This document shows, piece by piece, positions 25,357-39,223 of a DNA stretch of 41,474 nt; the stretch's first letter is position 1; each line of letters begins with the position of its first letter. The notes beneath the pieces were generated by a model that was not told the DNA's origin, ran no database searches, and saw only the letters and a program-made list of their open reading frames with translations. Position numbers and translations under genes: made by a program. Source of the DNA: Candidatus Amesbacteria bacterium (GTDB lineage: Bacteria > Patescibacteriota > Microgenomatia > CAZETR01 > Amesbacteraceae); NCBI GenBank assembly GCA_016219445.1, contig JACRNA010000022.1, positions 1 to 41,474 on the forward strand, written 5' to 3'.

Positions 25357-26189
25357 ATGTATTTATCCAATTGTACTAAATTTTTATATTCAGGAAAAGT
25401 AAACATGTTTTGCATAGACGGAACACCGTCTGATTTTAAACTTAGTAACGAATCTCTAGTTGCTTTCAAGGCAGTAAAGAGTGTAGTAACAGGGTAAGCG
25501 ATCAGTTTATAACCAAGTTGGGTTAAATCTTTTTGACTTAATATAGGTGTTTTACCTCCCTCAAGCATGTTAACAAGTAACGGGATCTGGGTAACTAATT
25601 TGGGGATCTGAATTAGTTGTTCTAAATTTTCAGGTGCTTCAATGAAAATTATATCTGCACCAGCTTCGATATAAGAAAGACTTCGATTGATTGAACTCTC
25701 AAATCCTTCCACTGCGATTGCATCGGTTCTGGCACAGATCGTAAAATCGGGATCCGTTTGAGCATTTTTAGCGGCTATAATTTTGGAACGCATTTCTTCG
25801 ACACCGACCAATTCTTTTCCATCCATATGCCCACATCTTTTGGGATGCTTTTGATCCTCGATAAACATGCTGGCCACTCCGATTCTCTCGTACTCGCGTA
25901 CCGTCATGTAGACATTTCTGGCGTTGCCGTATCCCCCATCACCGTCAGCAAAGACCGGAATATCTATACTCTTTATGATTTTTTCGATAACCGAAGTCAT
26001 ATCCGATAGTCCTAAGAGTCCTACATCAGGAAGTCCCCAATTGACCCCGGCAATAGCAAATCCACCCACAGATAGAGCCTCAAAACCGGCATTTTCTATC
26101 AATTTTGCTGAAAGACAGTCGTGAGCAACCGGAAGCTGAATACTCCCAGGTTTCATTAATAAGTTTTTGAATATTTTTGCTTTTGACAT
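25353..26189 (-). CDS. Isocitrate lyase / PEP mutase superfamily enzyme (methylisocitrate-lyase-like)
   Basis: FADGDGGYGN and FIEDQKHPKRCGHMDGKELV (K-[KR]-C-G-H lyase-type loop), then ICARTDA and IFIEAP. ATGA-type overlap with the aminotransferase gene. The start could be M12. Confidence 0.8.
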   Translation of the reverse strand: MSKAKIFKNLLMKPGSIQLPVAHDCLSAKLIENAGFEALSVGGFAIAGVNWGLPDVGLLGLSDMTSVIEKIIKSIDIPVFADGDGGYGNARNVYMTVREYERIGVASMFIEDQKHPKRCGHMDGKELVGVEEMRSKIIAAKNAQTDPDFTICARTDAIAVEGFESSINRSLSYIEAGADIIFIEAPENLEQLIQIPKLVTQIPLLVNMLEGGKTPILSQKDLTQLGYKLIAYPVTTLFTALKATRDSLLSLKSDGVPSMQNMFTFPEYKNLVQLDKYI

Positions 26190-26196
26190 AAAAAAT

Positions 26197-26239
26197 CCCC
26201 GCTATTGCGGGGTTGTAAAACACTTCTACAAAACCCCGC
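26197..26239 (-). promoter_or_regulatory. Mutually exclusive antiterminator / terminator hairpins (attenuator)
   Basis: The minus strand reads TAG-GCGGGGTT-(17 nt)-AACCCCGC-AATA-GCGGGG-ATTTTTT-ATG. GCGGGGTT/AACCCCGC (8 bp) competes with CCCCGC/GCGGGG plus U-run for the same CCCCGC segment. Confidence 0.65.
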
Positions 26240-26284
26240 CTAGGAGGTAAAGTAAAAGTAAAAAGAAACAACTGCTTGGTTCAT
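26240..26284 (-). CDS. Leader peptide MNQAVVSFYFYFTS (14 aa)
   Basis: ATG AAC CAA GCA GTT GTT TCT TTT TAC TTT TAC TTT ACC TCC TAG. Five consecutive Phe/Tyr codons. The stop codon directly abuts the antiterminator 5' arm. Confidence 0.6.
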   Translation of the reverse strand: MNQAVVSFYFYFTS

Positions 26285-26291
26285 GTCTTAT

Positions 26292-26320
26292 ATTGTAAAG
26301 AATCTTTCGCTAAATTGCAA
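26292..26320 (-). promoter_or_regulatory. Sigma70-like promoter TTGCAA-N17-TACAAT
   Basis: -35 at 26315-26320 and -10 at 26292-26297 (minus strand). The -10 ends 7 nt before the leader-peptide ATG, implying a leaderless or nearly leaderless transcript. Confidence 0.5.
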
Positions 26321-26374
26321 GCTGCAGTCAATATAGACAAAGTATCTATTCCAATAAATTTTTGAAGTCTGAGG

Positions 26375-26986
26375 TCATCCAGTAGATGTTACCATATAGC
26401 GCTCGGAAGACAAAGTGAATTTGGTTCCAGATTTCTTGGCCTGTGTCCAGTACATACCTTTCTTTTGCTTAGCTCTGGCATTATTGGCAGCCAACCAATT
26501 TTTGGATTCGGCCACCTTGGTTCTCAAGCTAGATATAAGCGATCTCAAAGTTTCAAAAAAGTTTCGGTGATAGACACCGGGGTTTACTACAGATTGCATA
26601 GTTGCAATTTGAACTTCTTTACCCAAATCACCCAGTGATTTAGCCATCTTATGGATATCCTCTTGGATAGCTGTAATTTGCTGTTTGACTTGGGTTTCCG
26701 CTTGAATAAAGAAAGTTCGCTCTTGAGTAAGTCTGTGCTCATATTTCTTTCCTGCCTTCGTTTCTCCCTCATTTTTGGCTTTTTCCAGGTCAGCAAGAGA
26801 ATATTGCTGACCGGCTTTGAGATCGACACTAGACTTCAACCCAAGCATTTCTGGAAGGTCGTCGAGTATGGCTTTTTTGACCTGAATCTTCGCTTCCTCA
26901 CCTAGGTTCTTCGATAGTCCGCGTAAAGCTTCCGCAAAGCTGTCTGCGGGCATTTGGACTCTCTTTTGAGCACTATTACTTGCCAT
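26375..26986 (-). CDS. Hypothetical protein (203 aa, charged / coiled-coil-like)
   Basis: Long ORF in the same orientation as its neighbours. I recognise no family. Confidence 0.5.
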   Translation of the reverse strand: MASNSAQKRVQMPADSFAEALRGLSKNLGEEAKIQVKKAILDDLPEMLGLKSSVDLKAGQQYSLADLEKAKNEGETKAGKKYEHRLTQERTFFIQAETQVKQQITAIQEDIHKMAKSLGDLGKEVQIATMQSVVNPGVYHRNFFETLRSLISSLRTKVAESKNWLAANNARAKQKKGMYWTQAKKSGTKFTLSSERYMVTSTG

Positions 26987-27004
26987 AGTCTGACTATAGG
27001 CCTA

Positions 27005-27655
27005 TTATACCAGATTGTTCAAATACTCAAGGGTCTTAGCCCTGTTTTCAAATTTGTGTACTGTTTTTATTTTTTCCAAAATAAATTCCATTTTCAAGTC
27101 TCTCTTTGCTTCTTCCAAGGCTGTCGCTCTCAGCCCTTCGGCATTGGTTTTTTTGGATTGTAAATATTGCTCGGTGGTTAGTCCCAATTTGGTAATGTTT
27201 TCGGAAAGAAGTGATAATCTATGATTGGCTTCTTCTTGGGCAAGAATCTCTGGAATTAGAGCTGAAGTCTTCTTATCCAAGTATTCTATACCCTTGGCTT
27301 TATATTCAGCCGGTAGTACTATTTCGGGGGCTTCACAAACTACGGCTACAAATTCCCAATCTTCATTTTCTTTGGCTTTCTTTAAGCTTATCTGGGGATA
27401 AAGAATGGGTGTGATTTTGTGAGTTTTTATAGCTTTCTCATATAGCTTGGGGAGCAAATCTTGGGCAGCATGAGAATACAAATCATTTTTATTCAAATTT
27501 TGTTCAACTGAAGCTCTTGGAGCCTTGCCTTTTCGAAACCCTGGTAACTCGGCATTGGAGACAGCCTCTAACACCAGCTTTTCATATTGCTCTGAAATTT
27601 CCTTCCAAGTAAGTATCAGATCAAGTTCTATATTTCCATTTGGGAGGCGTTTCAT
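27005..27655 (-). CDS. tig: Trigger factor, truncated form lacking the FKBP PPIase domain
   Basis: N-terminal ribosome-binding domain with LPGFRKGKAPRASVEQ (GFRxGxxP signature). Only 216 aa versus ~430 in canonical Tig. Confidence 0.7.
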   Translation of the reverse strand: MKRLPNGNIELDLILTWKEISEQYEKLVLEAVSNAELPGFRKGKAPRASVEQNLNKNDLYSHAAQDLLPKLYEKAIKTHKITPILYPQISLKKAKENEDWEFVAVVCEAPEIVLPAEYKAKGIEYLDKKTSALIPEILAQEEANHRLSLLSENITKLGLTTEQYLQSKKTNAEGLRATALEEAKRDLKMEFILEKIKTVHKFENRAKTLEYLNNLV

Positions 27656-28269
27656 TACTTTGTCAGAGTTGTGGTATCTAAAAATAGATCGCCAATTGCC
27701 AACTTGTTAATGACATCCATGCCGGATATCACTTTTCCAAAATAGGTATATTCATTGTTCAAAAATTGAGAATCTTTCTTGATGATAAAGAATTGAGAAT
27801 CGTTACTATATTCTTTGGGAAATTCTTTGCGGGCTACCCCTACGCTACCGACTACAAATGGTTCGCTCGATGTTTCTGTAGCCAGATCAGATTTTCCACC
27901 CGTTCCATTGCCTAGAGGGTCACATCCCTGGACGACCCAATCCTCAACTCTGTGCCAAGTCAGGTTATTACAATATCCTGAATTAAATTTAGCGAGAAAG
28001 TTTGCTACTGTCTTAGGAGCTAGGTCGGGTCTAAGTTCAATTACAAAGTCACCTTTGGATGTATTGATTTTGACTTGAGGTCTGAAATTAGTATTCATAG
28101 TACTGTTTGCCGGAGTACCGGATGGACTGGCTGTCTCAACTTTGCCTGTAGGCAGACTTTTGTTGCTAAATTTTTTGCTGATTAAGACCCCTGCAATTAT
28201 AACCAAAATAACGACAATTATTCCTGCGACCAAATACCTATTATTTTCATCCATGCGCCGATAATACAC
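27655..28269 (-). CDS. Membrane-anchored cyclophilin-type peptidyl-prolyl isomerase
   Basis: N-terminal TM (YLVAGIIVVILVIIAGVLI). Cyclophilin motifs are APKTVANFL, WHRVEDWVVQGCDPLGNGTGG, SQFFII and FGKVISGMDVI. Its stop overlaps the tig ATG (TAATG). Confidence 0.85.
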   Translation of the reverse strand: MYYRRMDENNRYLVAGIIVVILVIIAGVLISKKFSNKSLPTGKVETASPSGTPANSTMNTNFRPQVKINTSKGDFVIELRPDLAPKTVANFLAKFNSGYCNNLTWHRVEDWVVQGCDPLGNGTGGKSDLATETSSEPFVVGSVGVARKEFPKEYSNDSQFFIIKKDSQFLNNEYTYFGKVISGMDVINKLAIGDLFLDTTTLTK

Positions 28270-28274
28270 GAAAT

Positions 28275-28583
28275 TTAGTCAATTGGCAAGGATATCTGTC
28301 TATCGATGACAGGCATCTGCATAGAGCTTTCGATATTTGTAAAATTACTCAATTGATTTCTGATCTCAGTCAAGCTGTCCGGGCTCGTGATATTTGAAGC
28401 GGGAATGGGCTTATATATTCCACTTCCTTCTGGATTTTGGATAGTAGCCGCGCGAAAAATTGGTAATTTTGCAATCAAAAGATCTACCACTAATACAAAT
28501 ATCATGGCAGGAATAGACAGCCAGACAGGACTAAGGCCGTGTGGTAGCTTCATGGAGTATTTGGGAGGCACTAGATAGAGCAT
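28275..28583 (-). CDS. Small hypothetical membrane protein
   Basis: ORF with one TM (WLSIPAMIFVLVVDLLIA). The start is uncertain (M11 at 28553 is possible). Confidence 0.4.
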   Translation of the reverse strand: MLYLVPPKYSMKLPHGLSPVWLSIPAMIFVLVVDLLIAKLPIFRAATIQNPEGSGIYKPIPASNITSPDSLTEIRNQLSNFTNIESSMQMPVIDRQISLPID

Positions 28584-29112
28584 CCCGGCTTTCTTTCAAA
28601 TAACTTAAGTAGTTTTCATATGACCAATCATTGGTATCTAATACGACCAAGTTACGCTTGGTTTCGGAAAACTGGAGCTTTTCTAAATAGAGCTTGGCGT
28701 TTCCGGTTGTCATTTTGTCGGTGGTGCCAATATTTGCCAGATTGTCCTGAAGGACTTGTAAATTGTTCTTGAGGATTGTCAGCCTGGCTTGGTTTGCTAC
28801 TTTTGTGATTCGTTCCAGCTTATTTTCCCATTCCAGACTTGCTTTGTTTACCTCAGTAAGCGTATCGTAGCTTTTGATGCTTTGCTCCCACGAGGTGAGT
28901 TCCGCATCCAAAGAATTTTCTCCTAAGCTATGTAAATACTCCAGTATCAATTTGTTTCTTGATAACAATAAAGTTAGAGTTTTATTGACTGCTTCCTGAC
29001 GGGTGGAACTCGTGCGGTATTGGATATATTGATTCTTGGCAGTCAAATACCGCTTGGAAGCTTGTTGGTAATCAGGGAATGCAGATAGGACAAATAATAA
29101 AATTGGCAGCAT
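28531..29112 (-). CDS. Hypothetical secreted / coiled-coil protein
   Basis: Signal-like N-terminus MLPILLFVLSAFP, otherwise helical. Only 26 nt separate its ATG from the left end of the inserted element. Confidence 0.5.
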   Translation of the reverse strand: MLPILLFVLSAFPDYQQASKRYLTAKNQYIQYRTSSTRQEAVNKTLTLLLSRNKLILEYLHSLGENSLDAELTSWEQSIKSYDTLTEVNKASLEWENKLERITKVANQARLTILKNNLQVLQDNLANIGTTDKMTTGNAKLYLEKLQFSETKRNLVVLDTNDWSYENYLSYLKESRDALSSASQILHEATTRP

Positions 29113-29138
29113 ATATCTATATTAACATTTTATGTTAT

Positions 29139-29223
29139 GTGGACTCTTTTTGAAAAAATCCGAACTTCCTTTCGCGAAAACCGCTAAACTGTCAGCTCGT
29201 CCCGCTTCGCGGGACTCGCTTTT
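29139..29223. repeat. IR-A, left copy (85 bp)
   Basis: Its reverse complement equals 33751-33835 with one mismatch (29181 C versus the complement of 33793 A). Similarity continues imperfectly with an indel to ~29273 / ~33719. Confidence 0.9.
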
Positions 29224-29820
29224 ATCCTTGCGCTCGCGGAGCTTATCCCGCTATGCGGGGCTCGCGCTTTCGATTATTTAAGAATGTTTTCGGCGCGCGC
29301 GTTCTCGCCAGCGGGCGAGTAAGGAAGGATTTATAGTTTTCCTTGGCCCACCCTTCCCGTCCGCGGAAAACGATTTTCTCCCCTGTATTGTAGCTGAAAA
29401 GACAAGAGAAATACAGGCTGTCTTGACTTCACACTATCCCACCCTCCCAGAATAAATTGATGGCGGCGACCCCATCCTCGTTCGCAGGGCGCCCTAGGGG
29501 GCGCCTCGCCAGTGTCTTTGCCTTCTAACTTCTCATACAATCTCTTCCGAAGTAAGAGAATTTCTTGTAAGTCAGCTCACTGCGGTGGGGTATCCGCTTT
29601 TTCGCCCCCGCCTTCTTTATTCTACCCCTGTCCAGTGTCCGTACCATTGGCGGGTAATTCGGATGGCTCGCCCTGCATTTCCTTCTATCCAAAGCATTTC
29701 CAGCAGGGCTCGCGTGGGTCGGGCGCACTCGTAAATGTTCCAAATAATACGTTAGAATTTCTGTCGTGCGCCCTCCTTTTCAGCAGGTACTCTCCGATGG
29801 GGCGGGGGCGGCGGAGCCGC
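29224..29820 (-). ncRNA. Candidate large structured RNA (GC-rich, hairpin-dense, class unknown; the strand is my best guess)
   Basis: No credible ORF. One 60-nt line (29461-29520) is 43/60 G+C by my count in an otherwise AT-rich genome. Nested helices, written as minus-strand RNA, include GGGCGCAC/GTGCGCCC, GCCCTGC/GCAGGGC, CCCGCC/GGCGGG, GGCGA[GGCGCCC-CCTA-GGGCGCC]...TCGCC, CTGTATT/AATACAG and GGAAAA-CGA-TTTTCC. On the minus strand a C(UUCG)G tetraloop hairpin is TCTCTT-A-C-TTCG-G-AAGAGA. The block starts 7 nt after the SEC-C stop. Confidence 0.45.
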
Positions 29821-29827
29821 CAATAAT

Positions 29828-31273
29828 CTATTTGAATACTTTATGCTTTTTCTCCAGCTCCAGAAAGATAGCTAATGGAACATTTGCCGTAAAGTTTTTT
29901 CTGTCGGTGCGAGCCTCTAATAGCTTACCAACCGCTGTGATACAAAAACCAAGGGCAGGTATTTGCCAATTCATTCCGCCTGATAAAATTGCTGCGATGC
30001 CCCCTGATCCTGTAACCCATTTTAGAAGTTCCTTATCAATTTTTGTCCATTCTTCTTTTGTTTTTCCATATTCTTCCTGTAATTCCTCAGATAACCGTCT
30101 TGCCAACTTTTCCGCCTCTTCGTATGATGGGTTTCCTTCAATACCGACCCATACCTTACGTAGGAACTGCCTAAATCCTTCCAGTCTGCCTTCTTCCTTT
30201 AACCTAAAAGCAAATTTAGGATCGATGTTGTTGAGAAAATTGAACTCTAGACTTTGGAAAGATTTTGTAAGAGGGCTCCAAACTTCACCTTCAGAAGATT
30301 GGGCCTGTTTTGTTGATAGAATTTCCCGCCATTGCTCCCGTCGGTCAGTATACAGATAGGACCCTGTCAATTGTCCGATGTACAAAGCAAGCTCTAGGTT
30401 TGCACCGTTCCTCATTACGTGGAGCTCCCCACCATCCGGTAGTTCCTGATCCAATATCATTGGGTCTTCTTTCCTCATTTTTTGTACGTATTGGACCATT
30501 TCGGCCATTCCTTTATTATCCATTGTGGGGATAGCGTTCTTGATGCTAATTGCGAGTTTATCTTTGGGTAACCGATACATAGTTTTGGCAAGCATTGCTA
30601 TACCTCTTGGTTTTATTTCGGCGATTGTTTCTTTTGTAAGTTCAAGTTTCTGATCTTTCCACCTTTTTTCAGCCATCTGCCATACTTCCTTCCTAAGTGA
30701 GTAATCGAAGTCGCAAGGGTTGGGAATAAGGTTGACTAGGCCAGCTCCAATCCAAGGCGCTAACCGGAAAATAAAGGCAATCATCTCTAGGGTATCTTGT
30801 TTATATAATTCAGGGTGAACGATTGGGTTAAAATCTGTAGCTATAGTACGAGGGTTCATAAAAGGACTAACTACTAAAACTTCATCCGTATAGAGGCTAT
30901 ACCTTACTATGTTTTGCAATATCGCGTTTAAATCAGGTTTGGTTTCACCCATATAAAAGCCTCTGAGATTTTTACTCGGTTTGGGTAGTAATGAAATAAT
31001 GTCCGTATCTGTTGGCCACAGCCAAGAAACGACTCTATAAAGCTCTCTTACTTGATCATTGGACATCTCTCGTCTGAAGTCATTCCAAGTTATGCCTCTA
31101 TTGAAGCCAAAAATATCAACGATCGCATTTAGAAGTACAACGTTTCTCTCCTTTATACTTCTTTGGTGAAAAGGATTGGATTGAGGTGTCACAGCAAGAT
31201 GCTTATTGAGATGACACTTTTTATATTTCCTCCCGCTACCACAAGGACATAGATCATTTCTACCGATTTTCAT
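29828..31273 (-). CDS. SEC-C metal-binding-motif protein of unknown function (481 aa)
   Basis: N-terminal GRNDLCPCGSGRKYKKCH is a SEC-C Zn motif. I do not recognise the remainder. The C-terminus has a Gly-rich hydrophobic stretch, GSGGIAAILSGGMNWQIPALGFCITAVGKLL. Confidence 0.7.
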   Translation of the reverse strand: MKIGRNDLCPCGSGRKYKKCHLNKHLAVTPQSNPFHQRSIKERNVVLLNAIVDIFGFNRGITWNDFRREMSNDQVRELYRVVSWLWPTDTDIISLLPKPSKNLRGFYMGETKPDLNAILQNIVRYSLYTDEVLVVSPFMNPRTIATDFNPIVHPELYKQDTLEMIAFIFRLAPWIGAGLVNLIPNPCDFDYSLRKEVWQMAEKRWKDQKLELTKETIAEIKPRGIAMLAKTMYRLPKDKLAISIKNAIPTMDNKGMAEMVQYVQKMRKEDPMILDQELPDGGELHVMRNGANLELALYIGQLTGSYLYTDRREQWREILSTKQAQSSEGEVWSPLTKSFQSLEFNFLNNIDPKFAFRLKEEGRLEGFRQFLRKVWVGIEGNPSYEEAEKLARRLSEELQEEYGKTKEEWTKIDKELLKWVTGSGGIAAILSGGMNWQIPALGFCITAVGKLLEARTDRKNFTANVPLAIFLELEKKHKVFK

Positions 31274-31282
31274 AATTGCTTC

Positions 31283-31340
31283 TTGACTTTCGATTTATTT
31301 TCTAACTATACTAGTATATAGAAAGAAATTAGAATGTCAA
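31283..31340. promoter_or_regulatory. Divergent overlapping promoters sharing a 12-bp perfect palindrome TATACTAGTATA (31307-31318)
   Basis: The plus strand has TTGACT (31283-31288)-N18-TATACT (31307-31312). The minus strand has TTGACA (31340-31335)-N16-TATACT (31318-31313). The two -10 boxes are the two halves of the palindrome, which is a likely operator for the adjacent wHTH protein. Confidence 0.55.
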
Positions 31341-31341
31341 T

Positions 31342-32763
31342 ATGATAACAAAGCGCCAGAAGCAGGTACTAGAGTTTATAAAAATATTTCGAGACAAGAA
31401 GGGCTATGCTCCGTCTTTGGAAGAAATAAAGCACCATTTTGGCCTAGCTTCGGTATCCACTGCTCATTATCACGTTAAGTCCCTCGAGAAAATGAGTTAT
31501 CTTAAAAAGCAGGAAAATTTACCGAGAAGCATTGATGTATTTGAAACACGGCCCATGGTTCAAATCCCTATTTTAGGTCGTATTTCTGCCGGGCAACCAA
31601 TAGAGGCAATTCAAGATAAAGAAATTATTGCGGTTCAACAAAACCTAATCCTTTCTTCCTCAGAAGTTTATGCTCTTCGTGTAGTTGGTAACAGTATGAT
31701 TGAAGAAAATATAAATGATGGTGATGTTATTTTAGTCCGCAAACAGGAAACCGCAGAAAACGGACAGAAAGTGGTCGCACTTATAGATAATCACGAAGCA
31801 ACTTTGAAGAAATTCTATAGAGAGAAGGGGCATATCCGATTGCAACCAGCTAATAAGGCTATGGAGCCACTTATATTTAGAAATGGACATGATATTTCTA
31901 TTCAAGGTGTTGTTTTGGATGTCATCCGAGAAGGGCTGTCGCCAACCGTTGTTTCCACAGAAATTGAAGCTAAACCTAGTGAATATAGGGAACTTCCCTT
32001 GAACGAAATTATCTGCGGAGACGCAGTTGACGTAATGAAGGCAATGCCTCCGGACTCGATTGATCTGGTGGTAACCTCCCCTCCATACGATGAATTAAGA
32101 AATTATAATGGTTATCGGTTCAATTTTGAGGGAATAGCCAAGGGACTATTCAGAGTTGTCAAAAAAGGCGGTGTCTTAGTGTGGGTAGTCGGAGACAAAA
32201 TAAATAAAGGGGATAGAAGTCTTACAAGCTTCAGACAAGCCCTGTTCTTTCAGAGTGTAGGTTTCAACGCCCATGATGTCATGATTTATAGGAAAAAGAA
32301 CACTCCTTTTATGAGATCTAATGCCTACACAAATTGCTATGAGTTTATGTTCGTTTTCAGTAAAGGTTCTCCCAAAACATTTAATCCCTTAAAAACCAAA
32401 ACCATCCGACAGGGTCAAGAAATGCTTCCGTTCAATAAAAAGGCAGATGGAATAAATAAAAAAACAAAAGGTGAGCTAAAACCAGAAAAAACCTTAACGA
32501 ATATCTGGGATTATGCCGTAGGGTTTGGTGGCTCGACTAGCGATAAAATTGCATTTCAACATACTGCTATATTCCCAGAAAAATTAGCAGAGGACCATGT
32601 TCTTTCATGGACAAAAACAGGAGATGTTGTTTTTGATCCAATGTGCGGTTCTGGAACGACTTGCAAAATGGCCGCTATAAATAAACGCTACTATATTGGA
32701 TGCGATATATCTAAAGAATATGTTGAACTTACGAAGAAAAGGCTAAAATACTTCAATCTCTAG
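31342..32763 (+). CDS. Fusion: complete LexA-type repressor (wHTH + S24 autopeptidase) + beta-class N4/N6 DNA methyltransferase
   Basis: Residues 1-~205: LexA wHTH (RQKQVLEFI...SLEEIKHHFGLASVSTAHYHVKSLEKMSYL), cleavage-site-like ISAGQPI, and the Ser/Lys dyad GNSM ... ATLKKF. Residues ~225-473: motif IV DLVVTSPPY comes before motif I FDPMCGSGTTCKMA, the beta-class order. SPPY is more typical of N4-cytosine enzymes. Confidence 0.8.
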   Translation: MITKRQKQVLEFIKIFRDKKGYAPSLEEIKHHFGLASVSTAHYHVKSLEKMSYLKKQENLPRSIDVFETRPMVQIPILGRISAGQPIEAIQDKEIIAVQQNLILSSSEVYALRVVGNSMIEENINDGDVILVRKQETAENGQKVVALIDNHEATLKKFYREKGHIRLQPANKAMEPLIFRNGHDISIQGVVLDVIREGLSPTVVSTEIEAKPSEYRELPLNEIICGDAVDVMKAMPPDSIDLVVTSPPYDELRNYNGYRFNFEGIAKGLFRVVKKGGVLVWVVGDKINKGDRSLTSFRQALFFQSVGFNAHDVMIYRKKNTPFMRSNAYTNCYEFMFVFSKGSPKTFNPLKTKTIRQGQEMLPFNKKADGINKKTKGELKPEKTLTNIWDYAVGFGGSTSDKIAFQHTAIFPEKLAEDHVLSWTKTGDVVFDPMCGSGTTCKMAAINKRYYIGCDISKEYVELTKKRLKYFNL

Positions 32764-33344
32764 TAGTTTTTCTTTAGAAACTCCATAGCACTTTTTAGCA
32801 ATTCAACATCGTCCTTGAAACGCCCTAGACCAGTATTACAACTATCGCATATCCAGCCACCTGGTCTGCCTGTACGATGATCGTGTTCTAGAACAACTTT
32901 GCTGGTTATGCCAGCAATTGTTCTTTTTTTACAAACTGGACATTCAAAAGGTTCGTTGTTTGGTTTCTTTTTAAGCCATTCTATTCTATCGGTTCGAGAT
33001 ACGCCGACACCTTCCATTTTTACACGACAATCTTTACAAGAGGGCCGCCTTACTGACCTATTATTTTTTGCGTTCTGATTTTTGGCAAAATCCGTTGTCT
33101 TTTTTAGTTTATGACAAACATTACAAATTTTTTTAGAAAATCCGTCTCCCGTTTTTCTCACATCTATAATATCGATACCATTTTTACCTAAATCAACTTG
33201 CTTCCAAATCCTTATAAAAAATATCGAAGCATTATTTTTTGCTTCTGACTTTATAACGCCAACATCACCTTTTTCAACTACAATCTCTCCGGGAGCTACA
33301 ATGCCCTTCTTTGCTACGACAAATTTATGTGGTGAATTAGTCAT
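32760..33344 (-). CDS. His-Me finger (Endonuclease VII / HNH-type) nuclease, probable restriction endonuclease
   Basis: LEHDHRTGRPGGWICDSCNTGLGRF matches the Endonuclease VII-family motif DH.H.TG..RG.LC..CN..LG. Additional CxxC pairs are CNVCH, CKDC and CPVCK. It is convergent and overlapping with the methyltransferase gene, and preceded by an HTH gene. Confidence 0.7.
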   Translation of the reverse strand: MTNSPHKFVVAKKGIVAPGEIVVEKGDVGVIKSEAKNNASIFFIRIWKQVDLGKNGIDIIDVRKTGDGFSKKICNVCHKLKKTTDFAKNQNAKNNRSVRRPSCKDCRVKMEGVGVSRTDRIEWLKKKPNNEPFECPVCKKRTIAGITSKVVLEHDHRTGRPGGWICDSCNTGLGRFKDDVELLKSAMEFLKKNY

Positions 33345-33562
33345 TTTAAAAAATAATCAACTGGCTTTTTATAAATTCGAGCAAATTCTTTCAGTGCAAC
33401 AATATCAATTCGCCTCTGTCCTGCTTCAACCTTTGAGACGTGAGATTGAGTCTTGCCGAGCATTTTTGCCACTTCTGCCTGATCTAAACCATTATCTTCT
33501 CGTGCTCTTTTGAGCTTTTCAATAAGGGCTTTGTGGTCTTTAGAAAAAATCGTTTTTGTCAT
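33341..33562 (-). CDS. XRE-family HTH protein (controller-protein-like)
   Basis: LDQAEVAKMLGKTQSHVSKVEAGQRRIDIVAL is a Cro/C1 HTH. ATGA overlap with the nuclease gene, the usual C-R operon layout. Confidence 0.8.
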   Translation of the reverse strand: MTKTIFSKDHKALIEKLKRAREDNGLDQAEVAKMLGKTQSHVSKVEAGQRRIDIVALKEFARIYKKPVDYFLK

Positions 33563-33569
33563 AAAGTAT

Positions 33570-33598
33570 TTGACTTATTCTATTTTATATTCCATAAT
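33570..33598 (+). promoter_or_regulatory. Promoter TTGACT-N17-CATAAT pointing into the recombinase leader
   Basis: -35 at 33570-33575 and -10 at 33593-33598. This would give a ~390-nt leader before the recombinase ATG at 33994. Confidence 0.45.
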
Positions 33599-33646
33599 GT
33601 AATATGCCAAATTGGAATAAACAAGGTAGACAAGAAGGCTCACTAA

Positions 33647-33666
33647 AAATTTTTGCGTTTTTCGGC
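33647..33666. repeat. 20-bp inverted repeat, left arm (AAATTTTTGCGTTTTTCGGC)
   Basis: Perfect reverse complement of 33955-33974. The pair brackets the hairpin-rich 33667-33954 block. Confidence 0.9.
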
Positions 33667-33750
33667 TGTCCCGATTACCATCGGGACAAAATTCGAACCG
33701 ACTTTTTGAGAAAAAGGTGCGAAAGCGCGAGCGAAGCGAGCGCAATGATA

Positions 33751-33835
33751 AAAAGCGAGTCCCGCGAAGCGGGACGAGCTGACAGTTTAGCGATTTTCGC
33801 GAAAGGAAGTTCGGATTTTTTCAAAAAGAGTCCAC
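33751..33835. repeat. IR-A, right copy (85 bp)
   Basis: Reverse complement of 29139-29223 with one mismatch. It contains the hairpin AGC-GA-GTCCCGC-GAA-GCGGGAC-GA-GCT. Confidence 0.9.
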
Positions 33836-33933
33836 CAAATTGGATTTTGTAGCGAGTCGGAGGCGGCTCCGCAGGAGCCGCCGAAGGAAAAGACCTCTGC
33901 GAAGCCCTTTTTGAACTGGCAAAAAAGCTGCCG
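33832..33933. repeat. IR-B, left copy (102 bp)
   Basis: Perfect reverse complement of 35401-35502, checked base by base. It contains the 9-bp hairpin GGCGGCTCC-GCA-GGAGCCGCC. Confidence 0.95.
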
Positions 33934-33954
33934 GAGAAAAAGGAAAACAAAGTG

Positions 33955-33974
33955 GCCGAAAAACGCAAAAATTT
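33955..33974. repeat. 20-bp inverted repeat, right arm
   Basis: GCCGAAAAACGCAAAAATTT is the reverse complement of 33647-33666. It ends 20 nt before the recombinase ATG. Confidence 0.9.
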
Positions 33975-33993
33975 AAGAAAGAAGTAACTGCCT

Positions 33994-35508
33994 ATGATTA
34001 AATACATTGCCTACTGCCGAAGATCAATCGAACAGGAAGAAAAACAGGCTTTATCTATCGAAGCGCAAATTGCCGAACTGAAAGAATTTGCGCTAAAAGA
34101 AAAACTTGATGTTGTGGAATTTTTAACCGAATCCAAGACCGCCAAAGTTCCCGGCCGCGAAGTTTTTGGCCAACTAATCAAGAAAATTCAGCAAGGCGAA
34201 GCTCAAGGAATTTTGGCATGGCACCCTGACAGACTGGCTAGGAATTCCGTTGATGGTGGCCAAATTATTTATCTTCTGGATACCGAAAAAATTCTTGACC
34301 TGAAATTTCCCACTTTCTGGTTTGACAGTACACCTCAAGGGAAATTCATGTTATCAATTGCTTTCTCTCAATCAAAATATTATGTGGACAATTTAAGTGA
34401 GAATGTAAAACGCGGTAATCGCCAAAAACTCCGTCGGGGTGTTTATCCCTCAAAAGCTCCAATTGGCTATTACAACGAACCGCGATTACGAACGATTGAA
34501 GTTGATCGACAAACAGCAACAATCGTTCAGAAAGCTTTTGAGATGTATGGGACCGGAAATTGCTCCATGGCTGATATTCAGCGATTTTTCTTTAAAAAAG
34601 GAGTCAGAAGAAAGAAAAATGACAAAATGTTGCCCATGAGCCAAGTTCAAAAACTTTTATCAAACACTTTTTACTATGGTTTGATGAAATATGCCGGCGA
34701 ATTTTATGAAGGGATCCATAAACCATTAATCTCCAAAGGTTTGTTCGACAAAGTTCAACAAGTTCAAAAACAGCGCGGAAAACCGAGAAAACAAGCCCAC
34801 AATTTTCCGTTTCTCGGCCTTGTTCGTTGTGGTGAATGTGGGGCTTCGGTGACTGCTGAAGAACACTTCAAGTTTTATCCTTCAACCAGAGGTAAAGTTG
34901 CGTATGTTTACTATCACTGCACAAAAAGGAAAATTCGCCAGCCCTGTTCACAGCGTTACCTCAATAGTGTCGAGTTTGAAAAACAGCTACGGGAACTTTT
35001 AGCAAAAATAAATCTCCCCAAAAGATGGGCTGAAAAGTGGCTGGAGAAACTGGATCAGGAACAAAAAACGGAAATTGGCAGAGTTGAGGAAAACACAACA
35101 GAAATTAACCAAAAAGTACAAACAGTCGACCAAAAATTAGGCCGCTTGTTAGACGTTTATCTAAATCAGGAAGTTGACCTGCTTTCCTATCAACAAAAGA
35201 AAAGTCAATTATTGGAAGAAAAAGTCGGACTGAAAGAAAAAATTGCAGAGACATTAAAAAACGGAAACGATTGGTTCGAACCAATGAGGGAATTTATAAA
35301 CGTGGCCGCCGAAGCGGCCAAAACCGCGCGCGCCGAAAACAATAACCAAGAATTAAAACTCTTGGTTCAAAAAGTCGGTTCGAACTACACTTTATTAAAT
35401 CGGCAGCTTTTTTGCCAGTTCAAAAAGGGCTTCGCAGAGGTCTTTTCCTTCGGCGGCTCCTGCGGAGCCGCCTCCGACTCGCTACAAAATCCAATTTGGT
35501 GGGCCTGA
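33994..35508 (+). CDS. Large serine recombinase (LSR1)
   Basis: Resolvase catalytic domain (IAYCRRSIEQEEKQ, WHPDRLARNSVDG), recombinase domain, zinc ribbon (RCGECGASVTAE...YYHCTKRK) and a coiled coil. The last ~35 codons lie in IR-B, and the TGA (35506-35508) lies inside tRNA-Leu. Confidence 0.9.
   Translation: MIKYIAYCRRSIEQEEKQALSIEAQIAELKEFALKEKLDVVEFLTESKTAKVPGREVFGQLIKKIQQGEAQGILAWHPDRLARNSVDGGQIIYLLDTEKILDLKFPTFWFDSTPQGKFMLSIAFSQSKYYVDNLSENVKRGNRQKLRRGVYPSKAPIGYYNEPRLRTIEVDRQTATIVQKAFEMYGTGNCSMADIQRFFFKKGVRRKKNDKMLPMSQVQKLLSNTFYYGLMKYAGEFYEGIHKPLISKGLFDKVQQVQKQRGKPRKQAHNFPFLGLVRCGECGASVTAEEHFKFYPSTRGKVAYVYYHCTKRKIRQPCSQRYLNSVEFEKQLRELLAKINLPKRWAEKWLEKLDQEQKTEIGRVEENTTEINQKVQTVDQKLGRLLDVYLNQEVDLLSYQQKKSQLLEEKVGLKEKIAETLKNGNDWFEPMREFINVAAEAAKTARAENNNQELKLLVQKVGSNYTLLNRQLFCQFKKGFAEVFSFGGSCGAASDSLQNPIWWA
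35401..35502. repeat. IR-B, right copy (102 bp)
   Basis: Perfect inverted copy of 33832-33933. It overlaps the recombinase 3' end and the last 6 nt (CCACCA on the tRNA strand) of tRNA-Leu(UAG). Confidence 0.95.
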
Positions 35509-35581
35509 GAGGACTCGAACCTCTACCCCTCGCGGGACAGGTTCCTAAAACCTGCGTGTATACCAATTTCACCACAAGCCC
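35497..35581 (-). tRNA. tRNA-Leu(UAG), type II; CCA present, with C75-A76 supplied by the element side of the junction
   Basis: Manual fold: acceptor GGGCTTG/CAGGCCC, D arm GTG-AAATTGGTATA-CAC, anticodon arm CAGGT-TTTAGGA-ACCTG, long variable arm CCC-GCGA-GGG, T arm AGAGG-TTCGAGT-CCTCT, discriminator A. Confidence 0.9.
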
Positions 35582-35590
35582 AATTCTGAA

Positions 35591-35596
35591 ATTATA
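35591..35596 (-). promoter_or_regulatory. TATAAT box 9 nt upstream of the tRNA-Leu(UAG) 5' end
   Basis: The minus strand reads GTTGTATAATTTCAGAATT-GGGCTTG. Confidence 0.35.
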
Positions 35597-35598
35597 CA

Positions 35599-35633
35599 AC
35601 AAAAAAGCCTCGACTCCTGCCCGTTGTCGAGGC
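35599..35633 (-). terminator. Rho-independent terminator after the methyltransferase gene
   Basis: The minus strand reads GCCTCGAC-(11 nt)-GTCGAGGC followed by TTTTTTGTTG (stems at 35607-35614 / 35626-35633). Confidence 0.7.
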
Positions 35634-35691
35634 TCAAGAATTATGTCGCCTCAAAAATTAATTTAAAGCCACAAAACCTATATATACTATA

Positions 35692-36447
35692 CTATAGGAC
35701 AGCTTGTCTGTCAAGTCGCTGGACTTTCACAAAAATACTCGGTCCAAAATAGATACTTGCTAGGGTTTTTTGAAGCCAATTTTCGAGTTTCAATGAATTG
35801 AAAGGTAATCCCCTAAAATTGGATACAGACAGCAATTTGTCAATCTTATATCCACTCTTGATCAGGAGTTTTTGTAATGAAACCGGATGATGATTGACAA
35901 AGGGAATGGTCTGATTGCGGATGTTGACAGCCCGCCTTCTATCTATGGGAGCTGGCAATATGGGCTTGCCAGAAATAAAGCTCATAATACGAGATTTCAA
36001 ATTCAGAGAATTGGCAAATTCAATAATAGCTACACCATTGGGTTTTAATATTCGGTGGATTTCATTTAAGACAATACTGGTTTCTGTCAGGTGATGCATG
36101 ACCCGAACCATGACCACCAGATCACAGCTCTGGTCGGGTAGCTTTGTCTTCTGGCAAGTACCAGCTAGAATTTTGATATTCTTTATACCCTTCAAATGAG
36201 ACTTGGCAAAATTTCGCTGTTTTAGTGATGGCTCTACAAGCAGTACTTGCTTGGCATAAGAAGTCAGAAAGCTTGCCAATCTCCCGTATCCCCCACCTAG
36301 ATCCAAGGCAGTCTGAAAATGCCGGGTACCCAAGAGATTTTTTAGAGCAATAATTTCACTCTCGTGTTCATAGTTTCTGGTTTTCCAATAATCCAGATAG
36401 GAAAAATCGGGGTCATCATAAAAGTGTCCCATATTACTCGATGTCAC
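35692..36447 (-). CDS. Class I SAM-dependent methyltransferase
   Basis: ALDLGGGYGRL (motif I), LLVEPS, CDLVVMVRVMHH. Confidence 0.75.
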   Translation of the reverse strand: MTSSNMGHFYDDPDFSYLDYWKTRNYEHESEIIALKNLLGTRHFQTALDLGGGYGRLASFLTSYAKQVLLVEPSLKQRNFAKSHLKGIKNIKILAGTCQKTKLPDQSCDLVVMVRVMHHLTETSIVLNEIHRILKPNGVAIIEFANSLNLKSRIMSFISGKPILPAPIDRRRAVNIRNQTIPFVNHHPVSLQKLLIKSGYKIDKLLSVSNFRGLPFNSLKLENWLQKTLASIYFGPSIFVKVQRLDRQAVL

Positions 36448-37003
36448 TTAAAAATTGGTTGACTCCCTTGGCCCAAGAGCCTTGGGAGGGAGGAGTATAT
36501 TTGGCCATGATTTTTTCGGGTGTGTCCAAGCCTTTATCTACATAATTCTTTTTCAAGCCCCTAGCAACCGTATCCATCCCATCGACAAACGACTCAAATC
36601 TGGTCACCAGATCACCATAAATTCCATAGCCCCAGCAATTGTAGGAATTAACAGGGATCTTTTTACAGAGATTTGACTCTTGCTGAGCAATTGCTGCCAG
36701 AAGTCTCCAATCAAGGCCGTATTTATCGGAAATTTCGACTAATTCTCTGGCGTGGGGAAGCAATGGAGACTTGTATTTCTTGAGATAATTTGTGATGAGG
36801 AGCACTCTACCGTCAGCAGAGCCAAACTTTAGATTCCAAGTGGGAACAGAGTCATCTTTGGGACTTAGGACTTGGGTCGTATAGGCTACATCAGCTTTAG
36901 GGATAGTAGGCGCAGGAGCGCTCAAGACCAAGGTAAGAAAGGTGGCGACTAATGTCAATGGTGCGCCTATCGCAAATCCCCCTACCCACCATAGTTTATG
37001 CAT
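36434..37003 (-). CDS. Membrane-anchored protein with a lysozyme-like / lytic-transglycosylase-like motif
   Basis: N-terminal TM. LLAAIAQQESNLC resembles the SLT catalytic-Glu-Ser motif. The assignment is weak. Confidence 0.4.
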   Translation of the reverse strand: MHKLWWVGGFAIGAPLTLVATFLTLVLSAPAPTIPKADVAYTTQVLSPKDDSVPTWNLKFGSADGRVLLITNYLKKYKSPLLPHARELVEISDKYGLDWRLLAAIAQQESNLCKKIPVNSYNCWGYGIYGDLVTRFESFVDGMDTVARGLKKNYVDKGLDTPEKIMAKYTPPSQGSWAKGVNQFLSDIE

Positions 37004-37032
37004 GCCTCTATTTTACCAAATTTTCATTTTTA

Positions 37033-37117
37033 GTGTCGGGAGCGGGACTCGAACCCGCACGAAGCAAAAACTTCGAGAGCTCTTAAGGCTCTTGCGTATA
37101 CCATTTCGCCACCCCGA
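37033..37117 (-). tRNA. tRNA-Leu(UAA), type II, no encoded CCA
   Basis: Acceptor GTCGGGG/TCCCGAC, D arm GCG-AAATGGTATA-CGC, anticodon arm AGAGC-CTTAAGA-GCTCT, variable arm CGAAG-TTTTTG-CTTCG, T arm GCGGG-TTCGAGT-CCCGC. Confidence 0.9.
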
Positions 37118-37142
37118 CTAGATGCATTAATCATTTTATCAT

Positions 37143-38120
37143 TTAAACCTCTCGGATGACTTCAAATCCCTTTAGGCTTCCGACAACGGCGAAACCGTAG
37201 ACTTTTTGGGCAATGCCCATTTGTTTTATTTTTTTGGCCGTCTCGTTTAGAGTCGCTGCTGAACCGACAGCATCATCAATTAATAATAAATTATTATATC
37301 TGACATTAATTTTATCAATAAATATTGTTTCTCTAGCATTTCTGATTCTTTCCTCCAGCTTACCCAATGTCTTCTGAGCGACTCTGATTTTACCTGGATA
37401 TGCCTTGGACATATCTACGATTGGCAAAGCAAGATTTAGCTTTTTGGCAAATTCTTTTAAAAACTGGACCTTGCGCAAAATACTATGAGGTAGGTAACCT
37501 ATAGCATCAATATTTTTTTCAATAATAAGTTTATTTATAATGTCTTTAGATTCTTCTGCTGTTATCGCAATAAGATCACGATTTTCAGATTGTTTGGAAT
37601 AGAGCATTAAACACCCGAGTCTAGTCTTGCCAAAAGTCGGCAAACTATAAAAATCGCTGTAGTATATACCATCCAAATTCATATCTGATCTATATGTAGC
37701 AGATACGTTTGATGTCGCGTCAATCCATCCTTCTGATGAAAATAGAGAATTGGCACTTTCTCTGTCTTTGATATACTGAGATAACAAGCTATTTTCCTGT
37801 TCAGACTTACTGACATTTGATAACCAGCTACGAAAACCAGACAGTCCATCTCTAAACTGTCCAGTTGGGTCTACATAAGCAAAATATTTATCCAATAAAA
37901 CATGAGTTTCTTTGATTTGGTCGGGAGATATTGTAACTAATGTATAGAATACCTTTGGCGCGGACCCGGACTTGGTCAATTTGCCAATTTCAACTAAGGA
38001 TTTTAGTTGGCGGTGAAGTGCCACCTTACCTATGCCTAAGTGATCGGCTAGCTCACTTACTCTAGCCTGACCATTAGTTTTTAGGTATCCCAGAATTTTA
38101 ATTTTTGTATCTGTAATCAT
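37143..38120 (-). CDS. Winged-HTH + phosphoribosyltransferase-domain protein (PurR-like architecture)
   Basis: The N-terminus KILGYLKTNGQARVSELADHLGIGKVALHRQLKSL is a wHTH. The C-terminal LLLIDDAVGSAATLNETAKKI is the PRPP-binding loop of type I PRTases. Confidence 0.65.
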   Translation of the reverse strand: MITDTKIKILGYLKTNGQARVSELADHLGIGKVALHRQLKSLVEIGKLTKSGSAPKVFYTLVTISPDQIKETHVLLDKYFAYVDPTGQFRDGLSGFRSWLSNVSKSEQENSLLSQYIKDRESANSLFSSEGWIDATSNVSATYRSDMNLDGIYYSDFYSLPTFGKTRLGCLMLYSKQSENRDLIAITAEESKDIINKLIIEKNIDAIGYLPHSILRKVQFLKEFAKKLNLALPIVDMSKAYPGKIRVAQKTLGKLEERIRNARETIFIDKINVRYNNLLLIDDAVGSAATLNETAKKIKQMGIAQKVYGFAVVGSLKGFEVIREV

Positions 38121-38153
38121 AGTATACAGTATACCATATATTATATACTATTG

Positions 38154-38227
38154 TGGACGGCTAGGGATTCGAACCCCAGACCCCCGCTGTGTAAAAGCGG
38201 TGCTCTAACCAGCTGAGCTAGCCGTCC
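38154..38227 (-). tRNA. tRNA-Val(UAC), no encoded CCA
   Basis: Acceptor GGACGGC/GCCGTCC, D arm GCTC-AGCTGGTTA-GAGC, anticodon arm CCGCT-TTTACAC-AGCGG, T arm TGGGG-TTCGAAT-CCCTA. Confidence 0.9.
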
Positions 38228-38239
38228 GAATGAATAGAG

Positions 38240-38322
38240 TGCGGCGAGAGGGAGTCGAACCCACACATCCTTGCGGACACTGGCTTCTGAGGCCAGCGCG
38301 TCTGCCATTCCGCCATCGCCGC
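38240..38322 (-). tRNA. tRNA-Leu(CAG), type II, no encoded CCA
   Basis: Acceptor GCGGCGA/TCGCCGC, D arm GCG-GAATGGCAGA-CGC, anticodon arm CTGGC-CTCAGAA-GCCAG, variable arm TCC-GCAA-GGA, T arm GTGGG-TTCGACT-CCCTC with one U-U mismatch. Confidence 0.85.
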
Positions 38323-38384
38323 GCACTTTAAATATTTTAACATATTATCTTTACAAAATATGGTATACGCTATATACTTGAGAT

Positions 38385-39041
38385 ATGGACTGGACCGCTA
38401 ACCTTGCTTATGTTGTGGGTCTTATTACTACGGACGGTAATTTATCTAAAGATGGAAGGCATCTTATATTTGTTTCAAAAGAGCTAGAACAAATAGAGAA
38501 TTTTAAAACTGGTTTAAAAATTAATAATAAAGTAGGAATCAAGACTGGAGGCTACTCTGGTAGTGGGCAATGTTATTATATTCAATTCAGTAATGTTGCC
38601 ATATATAATTTTTTATTATCAATCGGTCTAATGCCAAATAAAACCAAAATATTAGGTAAAATGGATATTCCAGATAACTATTTTCCGGACTTCCTTAGAG
38701 GTCATTTGGATGGAGATGGTACAACTTACTCGTATTGGGACAAAAGATGGAGATCAAGCTTCATGTTGTATATGACGTTTATCTCGGCGAGTAAAGAACA
38801 TTTAAAGTGGATGAAATTTAATATTTTTAGGTTATATGGAATCTCTGGAACACTAAAGTTTAGTGGTAGATCAGTTTATCATTTGGTATTTGCTAAGATT
38901 GCTTCAATCAAGCTCATAAACATTGTATATTATACTCAGGTTAAGCTTTTCTTAAGCCGAAAAAGGTTTAAAATACTGCAAGCATTAGATATAATCAAAA
39001 AAGTACGCCGGGATGTTGTAATGGTAGCCAAGCATGCTTGA
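38385..39041 (+). CDS. Free-standing double-motif LAGLIDADG homing-endonuclease-like protein
   Basis: LAYVVGLITTDGNL and FLRGHLDGDGTT are the two LAGLIDADG motifs. The last 35 nt of the ORF lie inside tRNA-Leu(GAG). Confidence 0.8.
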   Translation: MDWTANLAYVVGLITTDGNLSKDGRHLIFVSKELEQIENFKTGLKINNKVGIKTGGYSGSGQCYYIQFSNVAIYNFLLSIGLMPNKTKILGKMDIPDNYFPDFLRGHLDGDGTTYSYWDKRWRSSFMLYMTFISASKEHLKWMKFNIFRLYGISGTLKFSGRSVYHLVFAKIASIKLINIVYYTQVKLFLSRKRFKILQALDIIKKVRRDVVMVAKHA

Positions 39042-39089
39042 GGTGCATGTGCTGTAAAAAGCGTGGAGGTTCGAGTCCTCTTCCCGGCA
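39007..39089 (+). tRNA. tRNA-Leu(GAG), type II, no encoded CCA
   Basis: Acceptor GCCGGGA/TCCCGGC, D arm TTG-TAATGGTAGC-CAA, anticodon arm CATGC-TTGAGGT-GCATG, variable arm GCT-GTAAAA-AGC, T arm GGAGG-TTCGAGT-CCTCT. Confidence 0.85.
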
Positions 39090-39114
39090 CAAAATTGATA
39101 TAATATGTATTGTT

Positions 39115-39187
39115 GCCGAGATAGCCAAGATGGTCAAGGCGCTTGTCTGAAGAACAAGTTATAAAGGTTCGAGTCCTTTTCTCGGCA
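39115..39187 (+). tRNA. tRNA with GAA anticodon (Phe), atypical D arm and G37
   Basis: Acceptor GCCGAGA/TCTCGGC, D arm GCC-AAGATGGTCAA-GGC (Ser/Leu-like), anticodon arm CTTGT-CTGAAGA-ACAAG, short variable region, T arm AAAGG-TTCGAGT-CCTTT. A TATAAT box lies at 39099-39104. Confidence 0.7.
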
Positions 39188-39223
39188 CTTTGACAAATAA
39201 AGTAGTCTGGTATCTTTGAACTA

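Follow-up and report, generated by a model that had tools for sequence, protein, structure and literature searches.

Serine integrases are widely used tools whose directionality is explained by the spacing of the half-sites in their two attachment sites, attP and attB. Here we describe a mobile element of ~6.4 kb, put into the 3' end of a tRNA-Leu(UAG) gene by its own large serine recombinase (LSR), in DNA of Candidatus Amesbacteria bacterium (GenBank assembly GCA_016219445.1, contig JACRNA010000022.1); the whole stretch analysed, 41,474 nucleotides, is called the window, and positions are counted within it. The phage serine integrases (A118/LI, SPbeta SprA, phiC31, Bxb1) share with this recombinase their resolvase, recombinase and zinc-ribbon domains, and they likewise recombine attP with attB across a core of a few bp, with an outer motif that lies 4-5 bp closer to the centre in attB-type half-sites.

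Inverted recombination sites within one molecule are found in three further systems. In the Hin and Gin systems inverted crossover sites bound a segment that includes the serine recombinase gene (hin); the recombinases, of ~190 aa, act on 26-bp sites with the help of a Fis-bound enhancer, and they never integrate. In the yeast 2-micron plasmid, two long inverted repeats with the Flp target FRT split the circle into two arcs, one of which holds the recombinase, but Flp is a tyrosine recombinase, the plasmid replicates itself and inversion serves copy-number amplification. In the man-made MiMIC and recombinase-mediated cassette exchange (RMCE) designs, a segment between two inverted phiC31 attP sites swaps into an inverted attB pair. 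We know of no natural element with such a layout of two inverted attP sites, and to our knowledge a design in which an intact attP is always left after integration has been built only by engineers, for cassette exchange.

Insertion at tRNA 3' ends is the habit of tyrosine-integrase islands (P4-like; Islander, PMC4383910), in which, as here, the tRNA stays functional and the cargo varies among relatives; they differ in their enzyme family, in having direct repeats of tens of bp of tRNA sequence (here 4 bp) and in having no internal inverted site. An initial annotation of the window had described an inverted attP-like copy directly upstream of the recombinase gene as a non-standard layout, and a literature search, which returned no natural element described as having two inverted attP sites, agrees with that judgement. 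For comparison, 80 genome loci were analysed together with the closest relatives and the window, 57 of these being usable, i.e., with enough flank; loci are numbered L001 and so on.

Results

Attachment sites and target gene

Two long inverted pairs frame the element. A repeat search of the surrounding 8.5-kb region returned one pair of 102 nt with 100% complementarity (33832-33933 and 35401-35502) and one of 85 nt with a single mismatch (99%; 29139-29223 and 33751-33835), and both are far above background, because the rest of the region gives only pairs of at most 45 nt at ~70-80%, or of 20 nt when perfect. The internal arms abut and share CCAC at 33832-33835, and both outer junctions read GTGG (29139-29142 and 35499-35502), so that the lengths, mismatch counts and overlap first reported were reproduced exactly. 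The main features are as follows.

29139-29142, plus strand: left crossover core GTGG (attL), a 4-bp sequence found ahead of arm 'a' in at least 15 differing left flanks of close relatives as well
29139-29223, plus strand: arm 'a' at attL, a P'-type half-site, from the inverted repeat and the T-loop-like TCCGAAC at 29159-29165
33751-33933, minus strand: internal site S2, a predicted complete attP (b'-GTGG-a) in inverted orientation, from repeats and family comparison
33994-35508, plus strand: LSR gene, 504 aa, from domain matches
35401-35502, plus strand: arm b' at attR, a P-type half-site ending in the core GTGG at 35499-35502, from the inverted repeat
35497-35581, minus strand: target gene tRNA-Leu(UAG), called by ARAGORN as tRNA-Leu(tag)

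Site S2 comprises a' (33751-33835), the core CCAC (33832-33835) and b (33832-33933), 183 bp in total. Arm 'a' contains a terminator-like hairpin (29199-29215), after which a T-run extends to 29223, and arm b' contains a GC-rich hairpin at 35452-35472; b' also encodes the final 34 codons of the recombinase, the stop codon of which lies within tRNA-derived DNA. As had been proposed, the joined ends of the element equal the inverse of the internal 183-bp site, and a circle-type junction of this kind, b'-GTGG-a, is present at the recombinase 3' end in L003, a 92%-identical relative.

Removing the element (29143-35502 deleted and 29138 joined to 35499) gives ...ATGTTAT-GTGG-GCCTGAGAGG..., in which ARAGORN recognises an intact tRNA-Leu(tag) that ends ...CAGGCCCAC, at A73-C74 and without CCA. 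The other seven tRNA genes of the window also end at A73-C74 with no encoded CCA, and the early observation of a GTGG core at both junctions and a restored acceptor end therefore stands. In the occupied gene C75-A76 come from the element, which places the crossover at tRNA positions 71-74. The predicted empty-site sequence is ATGTTATGTGGGCCTGAGAGG; exact look-ups of both flanking proteins gave no record, and none of the fetched loci has the same flanks.

The 504-aa protein has the domain set Resolvase, Recombinase and Zn_ribbon_recom (PF00239 at residues 5-150, E = 2.8e-20; PF07508 and PF13408 also match). Y7, R9 and S11 are invariant among 18 family members, and residues 206-393 align with the C-terminal domain of the A118/LI integrase (4kis), a match to the SPbeta integrase being found as well. 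It is thus not a small invertase of ~190 aa with a C-terminal helix-turn-helix (HTH).

A T-loop mimic in arm 'a'

Arm 'a' carries a family-wide, T-loop-like motif, AAA(T/A)T(T/C)CGAAC, and its CGAAC lies farther from the core than the T-loop CGAAC of the tRNA arm, by 4 bp at 16 and by 5 bp at 17 of the 35 loci scored, the scoring being confined to the a/tRNA side, with no recognised motif on the b'/left-flank side. In the window CGAAC begins 19 nt past the core in 'a' and 14 nt past it in the tRNA arm. The motif bound by the outer DNA-binding domain of LSRs (DBD2) is 4-5 bp farther from the centre in attP-type than in attB-type half-sites (PMC11722253), and since the offset between 'a' and the T-loop equals this shift, the assignment of b'-GTGG-a as attP and that of the tRNA 3' end as attB are both credible. 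It is credible, from these spacings, that an LSR attP arm here copies the tRNA T-loop at attP-type spacing, a feature absent from the initial annotation; the view taken there, that the junctions follow LSR att-site logic, is supported by the domain set, the family comparison and the T-loop offset.

When the left flank, the tRNA arm, 'a' and b' are compared, attP and attB have only GTGG in common. A metagenome scan returned at least 15 different left flanks before GTGG-a with nothing conserved among them, and on that ground only the tRNA arm of attB is specific. At L037 (4459-4620) the insertion of an element interrupts another copy's recombinase gene, the target being the conserved GQSKYY codons GGGCAGTCGAAAT; this may be read as a natural off-target pseudo-site outside tRNA genes, with TCGAA at attB-type spacing, and as such it fits the recognition rule. 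A literature search returned no report of LSRs targeting tRNA T-loops in bacteria of the candidate phyla radiation (CPR).

The hypervariable b/b' hairpin was considered as a guide for target choice and was rejected: L001 and L002 are both in tRNA-Val(UAC) and their hairpins differ. Among the eight tRNA genes of the window (24217-39955), Val-GAC and Val-UAC share the CCAC end of the occupied tRNA-Leu and are potential further targets.

A layout shared by a large family

Relatives of the recombinase number in the thousands, nearly all from Patescibacteria metagenomes. An inverted repeat around the recombinase gene (IR-B, 75-197 nt) is present in 51 of the 57 usable loci, at 44 of them with at least 90% identity and at 22 of these perfectly, and its inner boundary falls at the same codon, within a conserved NRRLF motif, in many loci. 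The 3' end of the recombinase gene abuts the 3' end of an antisense tRNA gene in 46 of the 57, with 28 anticodon types represented, and the tails of proteins that are >90% identical run antisense into at least five different tRNAs. From the internal site to the recombinase start downstream of it the distance is 16-270 nt (typically 30-100), and cargo is never present in the recombinase arc. A distal inverted 'a' repeat marks the left end at 28 loci (56-204 nt, mostly 93-100% identical, two at 83-86%), giving element sizes of 2.5 to ~10 kb. Among loci with adequate flanks, absence of the internal site is clear at one only, the first copy at L028. Approximately 95% of assemblies show a single arrangement, in which recombinase and tRNA genes are convergent. 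The inverted second attP is a conserved hallmark of a large and apparently undescribed family of Patescibacteria (CPR) elements, which goes beyond what had been seen in the window alone.

Close relatives (85-92% protein identity) differ in their cargo, which includes a diversity-generating retroelement, a ribonucleotide reductase and a giant surface protein. All of them share the right-end module, and the left-end backbone was found where it could be checked (L084, L001/L087). A phage origin was considered and rejected, only two of six viral-contig matches belonging to the family.

Derivatives of the internal site also occur without a recombinase gene. Orphan units (b'-GTGG-a with flanks) are present at L094 (5537-5885; the same locus as L115 and L119), L108 and L112; the L094 unit is bounded by a 20-nt inverted pair and adjoins an IS1595 transposase, and those of L108 and L112 are truncated at b', apparently by insertion sequence (IS) insertion. 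L109 (1-400) reads a'-CCAC-half b, a hairpin loop and half b'-GTGG-a, with the cores ~80 bp apart; its arms derive from two element subtypes, and it is either a deletion or fusion at a palindromic hairpin or a chimeric contig. Within the window, a second intact recombinase of the family lies at 39887-41398 on the minus strand (503 aa, ~48% identical, with a shorter C-terminus); it reads antisense into tRNA-Gly(GCC) (39883-39955, plus strand), and its upstream region ends with the window.

Probable recombination at the internal site

By its arms, core and orientation, the internal 183-bp sequence amounts to a full additional attP, which stands inverted shortly before the recombinase gene, and several natural loci carry junctions that involve it. 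At L039 the order is tRNA-Glu(UUC) (plus strand), b, recombinase, b' and tRNA-Glu(CUC) (minus strand); the two junctions fall at an identical tRNA position, and 'a' is absent from the whole 16 kb. L082 has the same type of layout between two tRNA-Ala-like ends, and at L076 a tRNA-Asn on the plus strand is followed directly by b and the recombinase. Such products would be expected if the internal attP had recombined with a second tRNA gene, or if a two-site cassette exchange had taken place; with a recombinase arc between two inverted tRNA genes, L039 and L082 resemble a natural counterpart of two-attP RMCE. Because the b arm is joined precisely to tRNA 3' ends in three loci, strand exchange does occur at the internal site.

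Two further loci point to inversion. In L003 the recombinase 3' end is joined through b'-a to the reverse complement of the sequence that normally stands left of the internal site, and in L106 the left-end RNA region (see below) adjoins the 'a' side of the internal site in the opposite orientation. Judged by these junctions, L003 and L106 would be rare natural variants that record arc inversion, with each arc represented. The suggestion in the initial annotation that the internal site could serve integration, and that either segment could invert, thus has natural examples in L039, L082, L076, L003 and L106; a decoy or regulatory role, also raised there, is possible. The Hin and Gin segments are found in both orientations within populations; among the assemblies compared here ~95% have one orientation, and single contigs (L003, L106, L082, L076) show flipped junctions.

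With the A118 integrase, attP x attP recombination proceeds at <5% of the attP x attB rate, and attL and attR do not react with attP (PMC3556126). Inversion at a low rate in a circle with two attP sites is biochemically plausible on the strength of the former value, and rare inversion in such a circle, followed by integration via either site, would yield all the variant junctions.

Copy identity and surroundings of the internal site

The arms differ greatly between elements and match within an element. The GC-rich hairpin of b varies with compensatory substitutions even between elements with near-identical proteins, identities between copies are mostly at least 97% with a tail at 75-89%, and mismatches concentrate towards the edges of the repeat, its middle having the fewest. 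Gene conversion needs flanking homology and halts after the copies have diverged, and the pattern of mismatches and identities fits what gene conversion between inverted copies would produce. Among the differences between copies, G:U-compatible transitions are not in excess (42 vs 42), and a further 103 differences are transversions; lacking a G:U-compatible bias, they do not support selection for an RNA duplex between the 5' untranslated region (UTR) and the 3' end.

Several short features surround S2.

33570-33610, both strands (divergent): sigma-70-like promoter matches, consensus matches only
33647-33666, plus strand: left arm of the S2-flanking pair, an inverted copy of the conserved 20-mer (20 nt, 100%)
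33692-33709, plus strand: inverted copy of the KKVGSN-coding segment at 35367-35384, just upstream of b' (18 nt, 100%)
33955-33974, plus strand: conserved 20-mer GCCGAAAAACGCAAAAATTT, right arm of the S2-flanking pair, 20 nt ahead of the recombinase start codon

Of the predicted promoters, the one on the plus strand points towards S2 and the recombinase gene, and the one on the minus strand towards the restriction-modification (R-M) operon described below. The start-proximal 20-mer has a family-wide form, the conserved 19-mer AAGAAAAACGCAAAAATTT, and both short inverted pairs (the 19-mer, and the KKVGSN stretch of 15-28 nt) recur in 30 of 36 family loci. The 19-mer pair could be promoters or operators that face outwards from the internal site. 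The KKVGSN copy, although its length is insufficient for gene conversion, varies in step with the gene copy. From these short flanking pairs we infer that a regulatory role of the internal site, besides recombination, is likely.

Cargo and left-end RNA

Between the left end and S2 lie four genes and a candidate RNA.

29405-29835, plus strand: GC-rich structured RNA candidate of ~430 nt, left-end backbone of a subset of elements, from comparative analysis
29828-31273, minus strand: 481-aa SEC-C-motif protein, from a domain match
31342-32763, plus strand: N6/N4 DNA methyltransferase with fused LexA DNA-binding and S24 peptidase domains, from domain matches
32760-33344, minus strand: type II restriction endonuclease of His-Me finger / Endonuclease VII fold (PADLOC REase_II, E = 3e-45)
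33341-33562, minus strand: 73-aa HTH_3 protein, a controller-protein-like regulator of the R-M operon, from a domain match

By these matches the cargo is a predicted type II R-M system plus a SEC-C protein. The methyltransferase carries a full LexA-like module (DNA-binding domain and S24 self-cleaving peptidase), with the separate HTH controller nearby, and the fusion suggests that methylation may be under damage-responsive control. In relatives the cargo includes a diversity-generating retroelement (reverse transcriptase and bAvd) and IS1595 transposases (L002, 2812-4651; L001/L086/L087, 3849-4565), and L086 and L087 have the same recombinase and right flank with differing cargo to the left of the IS.

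Homologues of 29405-29835 adjoin the left 'a' in other elements and retain 64-80% identity, though the recombinases of these elements are only ~50% identical. The candidate was found in 15 loci with nhmmer; it has a folding z-score of -3.2, compensatory changes in several helices and an invariant G-U pair that marks the plus strand, and it has no match in Rfam. To judge from this comparison, some elements carry what looks like a new structured RNA at their left end.

Discussion

By its enzyme and its site logic the element belongs with the LSR integrative elements; in part it works like the Hin segments, and its geometry is that of the 2-micron plasmid or of the engineered two-attP cassettes. 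We consider it probable, on balance, that it is an LSR element at tRNA-Leu(UAG) with a second attP that is competent for recombination, probably also regulatory, and kept by gene conversion. The attP of the element would be b'-GTGG-a, b' being the last ~100 nt of the recombinase open reading frame (ORF), and the T-loop mimic in 'a', placed 4-5 bp farther out, would let the LSR tell attP-type from attB-type half-sites. Two inverted attP sites would divide the excised circle between a cargo arc and a recombinase arc, one intact attP would always remain in the integrated element, and this internal attP may be used for integration, for recombination with another tRNA gene or for inverting either arc. 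Given its place directly before the recombinase start, this site is probably bound by the recombinase as well, with feedback on recombinase expression, and gene conversion between the inverted copies would maintain its near-identity with the terminal arms.

A number of points weigh against this account. Homologous recombination between perfect repeats of 100-200 bp would yield the same variant junctions. The A118 attP is inert with attL and attR, which makes recombinase-driven inversion in the integrated state doubtful, and because ~95% of assemblies show one orientation, inversion and use of the internal site must be rare or counter-selected. The activity of the internal site rests on five variant contigs among ~110 loci, some of which are short metagenome contigs that could mix states, and the L003 junction could come from a circle or tandem array of an element in which the 'a' repeat is longer. 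The length of the repeats is 2-4 times that required of an LSR site, and in decayed copies the 30 nt of b nearest the core were no better conserved than the rest. LSR integration is unidirectional and is reversed by a separate recombination directionality factor (RDF), and no conserved small gene that might encode one was found in the minimal elements L026, L046 and L028 (down to 2.5 kb). The second attP is kept in ~90% of family members; it could serve as a second integration site, in module shuffling or as an autoregulatory site. A switch of the C-terminal tail between the integrated and circular states (in the window from ...WWA to ...WWTLFEKIRTSFRENR) was considered as a means of control and rejected as a family feature, because the ORFs of many relatives stop at the core (TGG TGA) whatever follows.

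The internal copy might instead be purely regulatory, a recombinase-bound operator or insulator that tunes its own gene and separates it from the cargo operon, with the rearranged loci as accidents. Its position, always 16-270 nt before the start codon of a cargo-free recombinase arc and, in the window, between a promoter-like match and that codon, would suit such a role, as would the minus-strand terminator within it that faces the cargo and the flanking inverted pair of the family-wide 19-mer, which could be promoters or operators. However, an operator needs neither a crossover core nor ~100 nt of identity on each side, and the precise b-tRNA junctions of three loci mean strand exchange there; an exclusively regulatory site is in our view unlikely, and the regulatory and recombination roles are compatible. 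The repeats might also form an inversion switch, in which the flipped recombinase arc would be co-directional with, and downstream of, the strong tRNA promoter (ON) rather than convergent with it (OFF). The recombinase gene does lie, as hin does, in a segment bounded by perfect inverted repeats, a strong promoter match is found upstream of tRNA-Leu, L082 and L076 have a plus-strand tRNA directly before b and the recombinase, and L003 has a flipped-state junction. We nevertheless judge a dedicated switch to be improbable: the dominance of one orientation speaks against it, inversion alone cannot yield the tRNAs on both sides of L039 and L082, canonical LSRs do not recombine attP with attR, and the cargo arc is repeat-flanked too, without evident purpose for a switch.

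Control at the RNA level, in which a copy of b in the 5' UTR pairs either with the recombinase mRNA at its 3' end or with the tRNA trailer and so affects stability or translation, seems to us very improbable. The upstream promoter-like match would place a' and b in the 5' UTR, and further short complementarities tie this UTR to the pre-start region and to the 3' coding region, but the copy differences show no G:U-compatible excess and are mostly transversions, the pairings would cross each other, and the duplication of the 'a' half with its core would be left unexplained. An assembly chimera, or a functionless one-off relic of nested or tandem insertions, can be put aside with near certainty. 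Contigs of many relatives do break at or near the internal site and degenerate derivatives exist (L109, and the orphan sites L094 and L108), but the three-junction layout recurs in ~50 independent assemblies, and an artefact is excluded by their spread over many projects and assemblers, including the chromosome-level genome L025; moreover, the boundaries fall at the same codon, and the sequences differ between loci and co-vary within them.

A further-reaching form of the favoured reading, which we put forward as speculative and rather unlikely, is that the built-in second attP is an obligatory part of a new 'double-attP' class of serine-recombinase transposons that could move or excise without an RDF and that would be a main driver of tRNA-gene rearrangements in the small Patescibacteria genomes. 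Movement might then follow either of two routes, one in which a dimer bound to the internal attP unlocks attL and attR, and one in which a two-site cassette exchange takes place between inverted tRNA genes.

Compared with the phage serine integrases, these elements target the 3' end of almost any tRNA gene, with only the tRNA arm of attB conserved, and their attP includes the last part of the recombinase ORF. They also contain an additional, inverted attP, even those of 2.5 kb show no evident RDF gene, and the family is hardly ever on viral contigs. The element would seem, from its sequence and those of its relatives, to depart from described LSR elements in five respects, namely T-loop-mimic tRNA targeting, a one-sided attB, an attP within an ORF, the lack of an evident RDF gene and the second attP. 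It is set apart from Hin and Gin by its 504-aa LSR with LSR C-terminal domains, by sites that also serve integration and by the dominance of one orientation. As regards an autonomous replicon such as the 2-micron plasmid, no replication gene was seen, the cargo being the R-M system and SEC-C protein and the minimal elements holding the recombinase only.

The spacing of 'a' and the T-loop provides an independent natural illustration of the LSR spacing rule. As the attP arm copies the universal T-loop, one enzyme family can land in at least 28 tRNA types, and near-identical enzymes sit in many different tRNAs; the family is a source of many compact recombinases with defined sites and a target arm that is readable from the tRNA sequence. 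If the second attP is required for movement, directionality would be controlled or bypassed without an accessory protein, and the family would represent a mechanism of gene shuffling in CPR bacteria, whose mobile elements are poorly known.

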